Shown here: positions 14,087-24,072 of the stretch, one piece after another
How positions within the stretch are numbered: position 1 is the first letter of the stretch
Layout of the letters: the number at the start of each line of letters is the position of its first letter
NCBI RefSeq assembly: GCF_024700885.2
Contig: NZ_CP117016.1
From: Escherichia coli
Lineage (GTDB): Bacteria; Pseudomonadota; Gammaproteobacteria; Enterobacterales; Enterobacteriaceae
Strand: one strand, 5' to 3'
Length of the DNA stretch: 64,000 bases
Program-made: the position numbers and the translations under genes
Notes under the pieces: model-generated
What the model was told of the DNA's origin: nothing
What the model saw: the letters and a program-made list of their open reading frames with translations, nothing else
Database searches by the model: none

Positions 14087-14689
14087 TTAGTGGTTAACGA
14101 ATTCCCCATCCAGATAAACTTTGCCTTTTTCCACATGCATGACTAAACCATCCAGATAATCAGGTTTAAATGTCGCATCACGCTTATCTTTAGCAATATA
14201 TGTCAGGCAATGATTATGGGTGAAAATAACGATATTTTTATCAGGCGCTTTGCTTTGTAAGTCCTTAATTGCACTATAAATCTCATTACCGCACTGAAGA
14301 AGTCGTTTATCTACCGTCAGCTTTTTACCCGCTGAAAACCAGGTCGCCGACTGAATGGTCCGGACGGTATTACTGGAATAAAGATCGAAATCAGGGATAT
14401 CAGCACTAAAAGCGTTGCCCAGTTCACGGGCATCCTGGGTACCTTTGACCGTAATACCTGTTTTATCTGACAAGCATTGATTGGTTGAACGATCGCAACG
14501 TTCAGCATGGCGAAACAAAACGACAACCGGATGCTGCTGTGCCAGTCTGGCCAGCGTTTTATTGTCGATACGTGGCAAACCATTGCTACTCCAGGCGGCA
14601 TGAGTACCCAGTCCGGCAATTGCAGCGAGCGCCAGTAAAATGATGAAATATTTTTTTGACTTCAACGAAGAGCGGCAAAAAGCTAACAC
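14087..14689 (-). CDS. ais: Lipopolysaccharide core heptose(II)-phosphate phosphatase (aluminium-inducible protein)
   Basis: Track ORF trimmed to GTG start ([25 protein letters not shown] signal peptide), 200 aa; histidine-phosphatase RHAER motif; divergent from arnB. Confidence 0.88.
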
Positions 14690-14881
14690 GTAAACTCCAC
14701 CTATAGACAAGCGCAACCAGACAATTACCGTGAAATTGAGCGACATTTCTGGCGATAATTAGCAGTTGGTGTAATATTAAAAATCCTGCGATGCCGGCAA
14801 AATGCCTCAAAATTTTGCCAAATGCAAAGCCTAAATAAGAAAAAATATAAAAATTTCAATATTTACGTCTAATATTAGTTT

Positions 14882-14898
14882 CTTAAGGTTAAGTTAAT
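14882..14898 (+). promoter_or_regulatory. PmrA/BasR box (CTTAAG-N5-GTTAAT direct repeat) at the -35 region of the arn operon promoter
   Basis: cttaag gttaa gttaat read directly, about 80 nt upstream of the arnB start; matches the YTTAAK-N5-YTTAAK consensus from the literature. Confidence 0.7.
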
Positions 14899-14978
14899 AT
14901 TCTATCCTTAGAATTTCGCTCCAAATGGCAAAATATACACAACACTCTTTATAGCAAATATAAGTGGACAGGTATTCA

Positions 14979-16136
14979 ATGGCGGAAGGAAAAGCAATGT
15001 CAGAATTTTTGCCTTTTTCGCGACCAGCAATGGGCGTGGAGGAACTCGCTGCAGTTAAAGAGGTTCTCGAATCCGGTTGGATCACAACCGGTCCGAAGAA
15101 TCAGGCGCTTGAACAAGCCTTTTGCCAGTTGACGGGAAATCAGCATGCCATCGCGGTCAGTTCAGCCACCGCCGGAATGCATATCACGCTAATGGCGTTG
15201 GAAATTGGCAAGGGCGATGAAGTGATTACGCCTTCCCTGACCTGGGTTTCAACCCTCAATATGATCTCCTTGTTGGGTGCAACGCCGGTAATGGTGGATG
15301 TCGACCGCGATACGCTGATGGTCACGCCTGAAACGATCGAAGCAGCCATTACGCCACGCACTAAAGCCATCATTCCGGTGCATTATGCCGGTGCGCCAGC
15401 AGATATTGACGCCATTCGCGCCATTGGCGAACGTTACGGCATCGCAGTTATCGAAGATGCTGCCCATGCCGTCGGTACGTATTACAAAGGCCGACATATT
15501 GGCGCAAAAGGTACCGCTATTTTTTCGTTTCACGCCATCAAAAATATTACCTGTGCGGAAGGTGGCCTGATTGTTACTGATAATGAAAACCTTGCCCGCC
15601 AGCTACGGATGCTAAAATTTCACGGTCTGGGTGTCGATGCCTATGACAGACAAACCTGGGGCCGTGCACCGCAAGCTGAAGTCTTAACGCCGGGCTATAA
15701 GTATAATCTGACCGATATTAACGCCGCGATTGCCCTAACCCAGTTAGCCAAACTAGAGCACCTCAACACCCGTCGGCGCGAAATTGCCCAGCAATATCAG
15801 CAAGCACTGGCAGCTCTCCCCTTTCAGCCATTAAGCCTTCCCGCCTGGCCGCACGTTCACGCCTGGCATCTGTTTATTATTCGTGTCGATGAACAACGTT
15901 GTGGTATCAGTCGCGATGCGTTGATGGAAGCATTAAAAGAAAGAGGCATTGGTACCGGGTTACATTTCCGCGCCGCTCACACACAAAAATATTATCGCGA
16001 GCGTTTTCCCACGCTGTCGTTACCGAATACCGAATGGAATAGCGAACGCATCTGTTCGTTGCCGCTGTTCCCGGATATGACCACCGCCGATGCCGACCGC
16101 GTCATCACAGCCCTTCAGCAACTCGCAGGACAATAA
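14979..16136 (+). CDS. arnB: UDP-4-amino-4-deoxy-L-arabinose--oxoglutarate aminotransferase
   Basis: DegT/ArnB PLP-aminotransferase; track ORF trimmed to [19 protein letters not shown] (385 aa); MSEF is an alternative start. Confidence 0.93.
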
Positions 16137-22716: not shown

Positions 22717-24072
22717 TTATTGCTGACGTTGCACCCACTCTTTTAGCGCCTGACGTGAAATTTTAATACCGCCGTTTTTCAGTTCAGGCGGCAACGTTAA
22801 CCAACGCACCGGTTGCTGAAAACGGGCCAGCTTATCTTTCACCCATTCGCCAAGATCAACGGTTTGCTGGTCATACTCCACCACCGCTACCGGTCGATGA
22901 CCAAACTCCTTGTCAGCAACGGGAACGATAAACACCTGCAAAACCGCAGGATGTGCAGCAATAACGCGCTCGACTTCTTCTGGCTGAATGCCTTCGCCAC
23001 CACTGAAGAACAGATTGTCTAAACGTCCGACAATGGTCAGCTTGCCATTATGCATCTCACCGCGATCGCGCGTGGCGTACCAGCCTTCATCATTAACCAG
23101 TGGAACCAGTTGCCCGTTACGCCAGTAACCTTCTGCCATGCTGGCAGCCCGCAGCCACACTTCGTCGTTTACGATTTTCACTTCCCGACCCGGCAGCGGC
23201 GAACCGACGTCTGCCAGACCGTCGGCTTCTTTCGCACACACTGTGGAGGCAAACTCGGTCAGACCATAGCCGCAAAAGCAACGAATCCCCTGCTCGCGCG
23301 CCTGTTCCGTCAACTCGACTGGAATTGCCGCACCACCAAGTAACACCGCTTTCAGGGAAACGGAACTGCGGTTAACCAGCAAACGCCAGAGTTGTGTTGG
23401 CACCAGTGAAGCGTGAGTACAGCCTGCCAGCATTTGCTCCAATGGCTGTTTATCACGTACCGTCATCCGCGCGCCAGCGTATAACCAGCGCCACATAATT
23501 CCCTGACCGGAGACGTGAAACAGCGGCAAAGAGAGCAACCAGTCATCGTGATCGCTAAACGGAATTAGCGATAACACCCCTTCAGCGCTGGCAAGATGGG
23601 CCTGGTAAGTATGAACAGCGGCTTTCGGCAAGCCAGTGGAGCCAGAGGTTAACGTCATTGAGCACAGACGCGTCGGCTGCCACGCAGCGGCATGTGCGCC
23701 TTCAACCAGCTGAATGTGCAGCGAAGTTAATGCCGGAAACGTGTTTTCCCCATCCGGCACCAGCGCAAATTGCAGCGTAAGATTGGGGAGCAATTCCTCA
23801 AGTAACGGTTGCGGCAGCTGTGGATTCACGGGCAGCACCCGCGCCCCGCATTGCAGTAACGCCAGCCAGGCCAGCAGCGTTTGCGGCGAATTCCACGCCC
23901 GCAACATCACGCCGCTGCCCTCAACAACGCCCTGTACCGCAAAGCCGGAGGCTAATTCATCGACGCGAGCACAAAGCTCGCGCCAGTTGAGTTGCTCGTC
24001 ATTGAGACGTAAGGCGATGGCTTCTCCCCGCACTTGCCGCCAGTGACGCCACGGCCAGTCAGAGAAGATCAT
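22717..24072 (-). CDS. menE: o-succinylbenzoate--CoA ligase
   Basis: 451-aa adenylate-forming enzyme ([12 protein letters not shown]-binding motif); men operon synteny. Confidence 0.94.

Follow-up and report, generated by a model that had tools for sequence, protein, structure and literature searches.

The direct repeat CTTAAG-GTTAA-GTTAAT in the control region between ais and arnB of Escherichia coli is very probably the BasR (PmrA) operator of the arnBCADTEF promoter, a reading that draws on sequence comparison across Enterobacterales. An earlier note on the 64,000-nucleotide stretch of the E. coli chromosome analysed here (the window) had proposed this repeat as a PmrA/BasR box, and both its sequence and its coordinates on the + strand were exact. 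The identification holds as well: the repeat has an 11-bp period, is kept upstream of arnB across Enterobacterales and has already been named in papers (PMC10729948; PMC1525208). In particular, Salmonella, E. coli and Yersinia have been reported to share the PmrA motif of yfbE (arnB) (PMC1525208), and in a 2023 study of enteropathogenic E. coli (EPEC) the same sequence is labelled as the site of PmrA in the arn promoter, 'with a slight modification' (PMC10729948). Induction of a P_arnB-gfp fusion in MG1655 needs pmrA (bioRxiv 10.1101/2020.05.05.080051), and constitutive mutations in basS or basR raise arnB-lacZ expression 31-72 fold (PMC8151780). As far as the box at the arnB promoter is concerned, the finding is correct, already known and no new biology. 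What the comparative data give is a precise promoter model, in which the box is followed by 10 bp, a -10 hexamer and a predicted start near 14921 (Table 1).

In the annotation of an identical strain, the locus reads nudI(+), ais(-), arnB-arnC-arnA-arnD-arnT-arnE-arnF(+), pmrD(-) and menE(-). All coordinates are those of the window, and addition of 2350931 converts them to K-12 MG1655 coordinates. The segment 14000-15400 has a match in 5418 of 5426 complete E. coli genomes, several of them at 100%, and in most of these genomes this surrounding 1.4 kb shows only 95-99% identity. The limits of the control region, given in the earlier note as 14747-14978, had to be corrected. Based on the annotated and aligned start codons, the ais-arnB intergenic region covers 14690-14996 (307 bp). 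For ais, RefSeq/PGAP places the start at the GTG at 14689, as opposed to the ATG at 14746, and the GTG is supported because its GGAG Shine-Dalgarno sequence is conserved in the cross-species alignment. For arnB, the PGAP start is the ATG at 14997 (379 aa), while the K-12 annotation uses the ATG equivalent to 14979 (385 aa). The former is favoured, because in Citrobacter the upstream ATG is directly followed by a stop codon (ATGGCTTGA) and because the AAGGA-N6-ATG arrangement is conserved.

Table 1. Features of the ais-arnB control region, in window coordinates
Feature	Position	Strand	Basis or remark
ais (pmrG) coding sequence	14087..14689	-	GTG start; annotation; GGAG-N5-GTG arrangement kept across 11 species
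Candidate ais core promoter	14799..14827	-	-35-like TTGCAT (14827 to 14822), 17-nt variable spacer, -10-like CATTTT (14804 to 14799)
PmrA/BasR box	14882..14898	+	half-site 1 CTTAAG (14882-14887), spacer GTTAA (14888-14892), half-site 2 GTTAAT (14893-14898)
Predicted arnB -10 hexamer, TAGAAT (TAAAAT in K-12)	14909..14914	+	spacing conserved in 68 species; in-silico assignment
Predicted arnB transcription start, about 14921 (K-12 about 2365852)	14919..14923	+	inferred, 5-9 nt downstream of the -10 hexamer
arnB Shine-Dalgarno sequence, AAGGA	14986..14990	+	(G)AAGGAA 6 nt before the ATG at 14997; kept in Escherichia and Citrobacter
arnB coding sequence, first gene of arnBCADTEF	14997..16136	+	RefSeq annotation of an identical strain and ORF list

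The significance of the match between the repeat and the PmrA recognition sequence depends on the consensus that is chosen. Against the loose consensus YTTAAK-N5-YTTAAK, the box carries one mismatch (the G that opens half-site 2), and a search of the 64-kb window at one mismatch returned five matches against 2.7 expected, which is not significant. The loose consensus with one mismatch was dropped as evidence for the box, since its matches are at chance level. The experimentally verified boxes of Salmonella, however, have the form CTTAAG-N5-XTTAAT, where X is any base (PMC3973317), and the box is the sole match to CTTAAG-N5-NTTAAT in 64 kb, with 0.01 expected. It is conservation that decides. 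The base at issue, the first of half-site 2, is variable among the 68 species in which a full box was found (A in 13, C in 30, G in 16 and T in 9) and is also N in the verified Salmonella boxes. Four other BasR boxes of K-12 (those of eptA, pmrR, ugd and waaH) match at all 12 of 12 positions with a C opening half-site 2, whereas arnB has a G; judged by this base, the arnB box may be of lower affinity. In 2012, Ogasawara and colleagues reportedly gave a direct repeat of TTAAnnTT as the definition of the BasR box, and the arnB box fits this form as TTAAggTT-aag-TTAAtaTT.

Conservation was assessed in 80 arnB loci taken from different Enterobacterales species, 78 of which had enough upstream sequence. 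A full box lies within 400 bp upstream of arnB in 68 of these 78 loci, as against 0.97% of shuffled controls. When the upstream regions of Escherichia and Citrobacter are aligned, the box, CTTAAGG[T/A]TAA[G/A]TTAA[T/C], forms the longest invariant stretch between diverged flanks, and 5374 of 5426 complete E. coli genomes carry the 35-mer around it (14874-14908) without a change. It is exceedingly improbable that the box is a chance product of AT-rich intergenic DNA and plays no regulatory role. The excess of matches to the loose consensus is indeed small enough to allow such a view, but it is countered by the single match to the verified consensus in the window, by the invariance of the box across species and within E. 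coli, and by its fixed distance to a conserved -10 hexamer.

This distance emerged from the upstream regions of the 68 species, which were anchored on the box alone. Outside the box, only positions +28, +29 and +33 from its first base carry high information, being T in 66, A in 68 and T in 68 of the 68 species, respectively. Thus, 66-68 of 68 species have a TAnnnT hexamer exactly 10 bp downstream of the box, while the background frequency of TAnnnT in these regions is 2.9%. No recognisable sigma-70 -35 hexamer precedes TAGAAT, and a sigma-70 consensus scan reports no promoter there. The proposal that the box sits where the -35 element of the arnBCADTEF promoter would be expected is therefore well founded. 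The same layout recurs at the other BasR promoters of K-12, namely those of eptA, pmrR and ugd, where an nAnnnT hexamer comes 10 bp after the box, and that of waaH, where the same 10-bp gap is followed by TAAAAC. Read from sequence, it is the layout of PhoB-type promoters, in which an activator binds in place of the -35 element, and not that of a repressor site. The arnB leader, from the predicted start to the ATG at 14997, is predicted to be about 76 nt long, and this start is consistent with the PmrA footprint of Klebsiella pneumoniae, whose promoter-proximal edge lies at -22 (PMC2565834).

Several minor features of the arnB core promoter and leader were also seen. The strain carries a single-nucleotide difference at 14911, within the -10 hexamer, where K-12 and the EPEC probe have TAAAAT and this strain has TAGAAT, and both versions match TATAAT at five of six positions; a second one lies at 14917 in the core promoter, with C here and T in EPEC. 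An extended -10 sequence, TGgCAAAAT at 14926-14934, was considered as the arnB promoter and set aside, being conserved only in Escherichia and Citrobacter and not across the 68 species. As a conserved TGnCAAAAT, it could be a second arnB promoter in those two genera. The same bases belong to a tiny open reading frame at 14925-14954, which reads MAKYTQHSL* here and MK* in Citrobacter; its ATG, 4-6 nt downstream of the predicted arnB start, is shared by Escherichia and Citrobacter. The sequences GGCAAAAT and CCAAATG of this frame each recur in the conserved block on the ais side. In C. amalonaticus (L007, about 2190-2500), the arnB leader has gained some 200 bp of inserted DNA with GC-rich, REP-like palindromes; this insertion shifts the box to -327 from the start codon and leaves the spacing between box and -10 hexamer unchanged.

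The proposed mechanism follows that of PhoB. At class II pho boxes, the activator site likewise replaces the -35 element, consists of tandem 11-bp repeats and lacks a -35 hexamer. Pho boxes end 10 bp upstream of the -10 hexamer. The arnB box, ending exactly 10 bp before TAGAAT, would take the place of the -35 hexamer in the same way, and a bound BasR dimer would recruit sigma-70 RNA polymerase as PhoB does, presumably through a contact with sigma-4. BasR is expected to contact the exact bases of the box, with transcription starting near 14921. The two systems differ in regulator and in recognition sequence (CTGTCAT for PhoB and YTTAAK for PmrA), and the sigma-4 activation by PmrA has been modelled on the PhoB ternary complex: in the paper on the PmrA-DNA crystal structure, a PhoB-based docking model puts sigma-4 at the two DNA-binding domains (PMC4660055). 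Its authors place the -35 element at half-site 1, citing PMC2565834 (PMC4660055). Upon sensing of Fe3+, Al3+ or mild acid by BasS, arnB would be transcribed, 4-aminoarabinose added to lipid A and polymyxin resistance increased. The box would be the switch for this lipid A modification, through which E. coli can become resistant to polymyxin and colistin by chromosomal means.

A different role for PmrA at this site has been proposed, in which PmrA blocks RNA polymerase and QseB is the activator (PMC10729948). According to this reading, the site is mainly an operator of QseB, a paralogous response regulator phosphorylated by PmrB, which activates arn, while PmrA only occludes the promoter. Phosphorylated QseB does shift a 60-bp oligonucleotide that corresponds to 14861-14920 of the window with two SNPs and includes the whole box, and a pmrA qseC double mutant expresses arnB at a constitutively raised level (PMC10729948). 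However, as the probe holds the entire box, a QseB site and cross-binding of QseB to the PmrA box are inseparable in this assay. The QseB consensus, G(C/T)(G/A)ACAAT(A/T)A-N4-TT, has 251 matches with up to three mismatches in the window against 249 expected. Its best intergenic match (14752-14767, one mismatch) lies outside the probe, and there is no good match inside it. The reading also has to contend with the requirement for pmrA in arnB induction (bioRxiv 10.1101/2020.05.05.080051), with the rise of arnB expression in basR and basS constitutive mutants (PMC8151780) and with the order of box, 10 bp and -10 hexamer, which is that of an activator site. A site that is mainly a QseB operator is thus quite unlikely. 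Because the activator architecture is conserved and because of the genetic data on pmrA/basR, the occlusion model is unlikely as well, and the comparative data speak against the published view of PmrA as a mere block on the arn promoter. Cross-talk of QseB at the box, as an addition to BasR control and not as its replacement, is plausible.

PhoP was considered as a further regulator of the region. The PhoP box, (T/G)GTTTA-N5-(T/G)GTTTA, through which PhoP acts directly on pbgP in Klebsiella and Yersinia, has no match at up to two mismatches within 14690-14996. This agrees with the description of the E. coli arn promoter as one without direct PhoP control (PMC2565834), and it sets E. coli apart from Klebsiella, where a PhoP box is present and a second promoter depends on PhoP. 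Over the whole window, PhoP-box-like matches are commoner than in shuffled sequence (23 as against 12.5). The best of them, GGTTTTGCAGGTGTTTA at 22929-22945 (-) with one mismatch, falls within menE, some 320 bp upstream of pmrD, and could be, but need not be, the site through which PhoP controls pmrD.

The closest known counterpart of the arnB box is the PmrA box of pbgP (pmrH) in Salmonella enterica, which lies between pmrG and pmrH and is orthologous, as is the intergenic region itself. The Salmonella loci have CTTAATGTTAATTTAAT as their box, then 10 bp and TAGGGT, with the same direct-repeat geometry, CTTAAG/T-N5-NTTAAT. Three bases within the box differ between Salmonella and E. coli, and the distance from the box to the conserved block on the ais side is 75 bp in the former and 85 bp in the latter. 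In K. pneumoniae, box1 of pbgP is CTTAAT-ATTAT-CCTAAG (PDB 4S04/4S05), again with two hexamers 11 bp apart. Half-site 2 is CCTAAG there, in contrast to GTTAAT in E. coli. Activated PmrA is bound head-to-tail at this box (PMC4660055), for which a PmrA footprint is available (PMC2565834), and it has been crystallised together with PmrA; orthologous Salmonella boxes have been footprinted as well. The Klebsiella and Raoultella loci have the same 10-bp gap, followed by TAAATT. Among the K-12 BasR promoters compared, only the arnB box sits between divergent BasR-responsive genes.

The same region had also been said to drive the divergent ais gene, and the ais loci support this. Ais homologues were traced to their contigs and combined with those fetched arnB loci that contain ais, which gave 14 ais-bearing loci. 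In nine of them, arnB is divergent from ais (three from Escherichia, four Citrobacter lineages and two from Salmonella). In C. tructae, a PMT-family glycosyltransferase gene occupies the position of arnB. An adjacent arn operon is absent from the remaining four, which belong to Intestinirhabdus alba, C. rodentium, a C. freundii-like genome and one metagenome contig; ais is preceded by pmrD in Intestinirhabdus alba and by menE in the other three. The box in arn orientation, the 10-bp gap and the TAnnnT hexamer are kept in all 14 loci. A block on the ais strand, TTTGCn-17-CATTTT, is likewise invariant in 14 of 14, with a 17-nt spacer that varies (the loci include L002, L003, L007, L011 and L084-L092). 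Every ais locus examined thus has the box and a promoter-like block proximal to ais, and ais is co-expressed with eptA, arnABC, pmrR, ugd and waaH, that is, with the BasR regulon, in a transcriptome of Fe(III) adaptation (PMC13405929).

From its sequence, the ais-side block is a candidate ais promoter, with the shape of a weak sigma-70 promoter and a predicted mRNA start near 14792 (K-12 2365723). It could serve as the core promoter of ais or bind an additional factor. The latter is suggested by the 8-mer GGCATTTT, which is invariant beyond the need of a plain -10 hexamer. In E. coli, the block overlaps an inverted repeat, GGCAAAAT-N8-ATTTTGCC (14796-14819). Measured from the centre of the box, GCATTTT lies 85 bp away in six loci, 75 bp in six, 64 bp in one, and 77 and 72 bp in the remaining two, and as most of these distances differ by 10 or 21 bp, a constraint of helical phase is suggested.

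Taken with the conserved pairing of box and block, these distances suggest that the single box very probably also confers BasR control on ais. The arrangement in which one inverted, distal PmrA box serves both divergent genes, arnB and ais, is put forward tentatively, as a possibility. If it is true, BasR would activate ais from about -75 to -100 in a manner that depends on the helix face, or, alternatively, the firing of the arn-side promoter itself would stimulate ais. Either form of coupling would explain the upkeep of an apparently orphan PmrA promoter, and the observations on the ais side could explain how one response-regulator site controls two divergent lipopolysaccharide-modification genes. 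It is rather doubtful that the box controls arnB only, with ais under the independent control of the block at 14799-14827 and co-expressed with the BasR regulon only indirectly. Relative to ais, the box is inverted and situated some 90-106 bp ahead of the putative ais start, there is no further PmrA box in ais orientation, and the conservation of GGCATTTT beyond the needs of a -10 hexamer points to another factor, all of which would fit independent control. Yet four loci without an adjacent arn operon keep the box beside ais, the distances from box to block cluster at 64, 75 and 85 bp, whole helical turns apart, and the expression of ais goes together with that of eptA, arn, pmrR and ugd (PMC13405929). 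The pattern of a shared box and an orphan promoter at ais is a modest lead.

In the four arn-less genomes, the PmrA-type promoters are complete (L086 1334-1350, L088 1381-1397, L089 1332-1348 and L090 1337-1353) and point towards menE or pmrD, at the 3' end or the terminator. Behind the orphan promoter, these genomes have no conserved small open reading frame, and a search for small RNAs with Rfam over 14500-15200 gave no family match.

Other promoter and site readings of the intergenic region were weighed and rejected. The sigma-70 scan reported only GTGAAA/GATAAT (+, 14730-14759) and TAGACG/TATATT (-, 14871-14844). The latter was discarded as a general ais promoter, being deleted in Escherichia sp. 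E1V33 and unconserved in E. albertii and Citrobacter; in Salmonella and Intestinirhabdus, GATAAT/TATAAT is aligned with it. TAATAT (14779 to 14774) was rejected as the ais -10 element on account of its variable distance from the conserved block in Salmonella, Intestinirhabdus and C. rodentium. Sigma-54, sigma-32 and marbox readings of the block were poor fits by eye. The yhjX promoter contains GGCATTTCAT-11-GGCATTTCAT, a repeat motif that we take to be a YpdB-type site. The ais block shares GGCATTT with it, but has a period of 20 bp and not 21 bp and a poor first copy, so that a YpdB-type site in the block is a weak lead only.

Elsewhere in the window, the annotation of the identical strain places an IS200/IS605-family element at about 9023-11280, with ISEc46 tnpA and a gene for a TnpB/InsQ RNA-guided endonuclease. 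It interrupts an IclR-family regulator gene between the rhamnonate genes and yfaY, leaving two pseudogene fragments.
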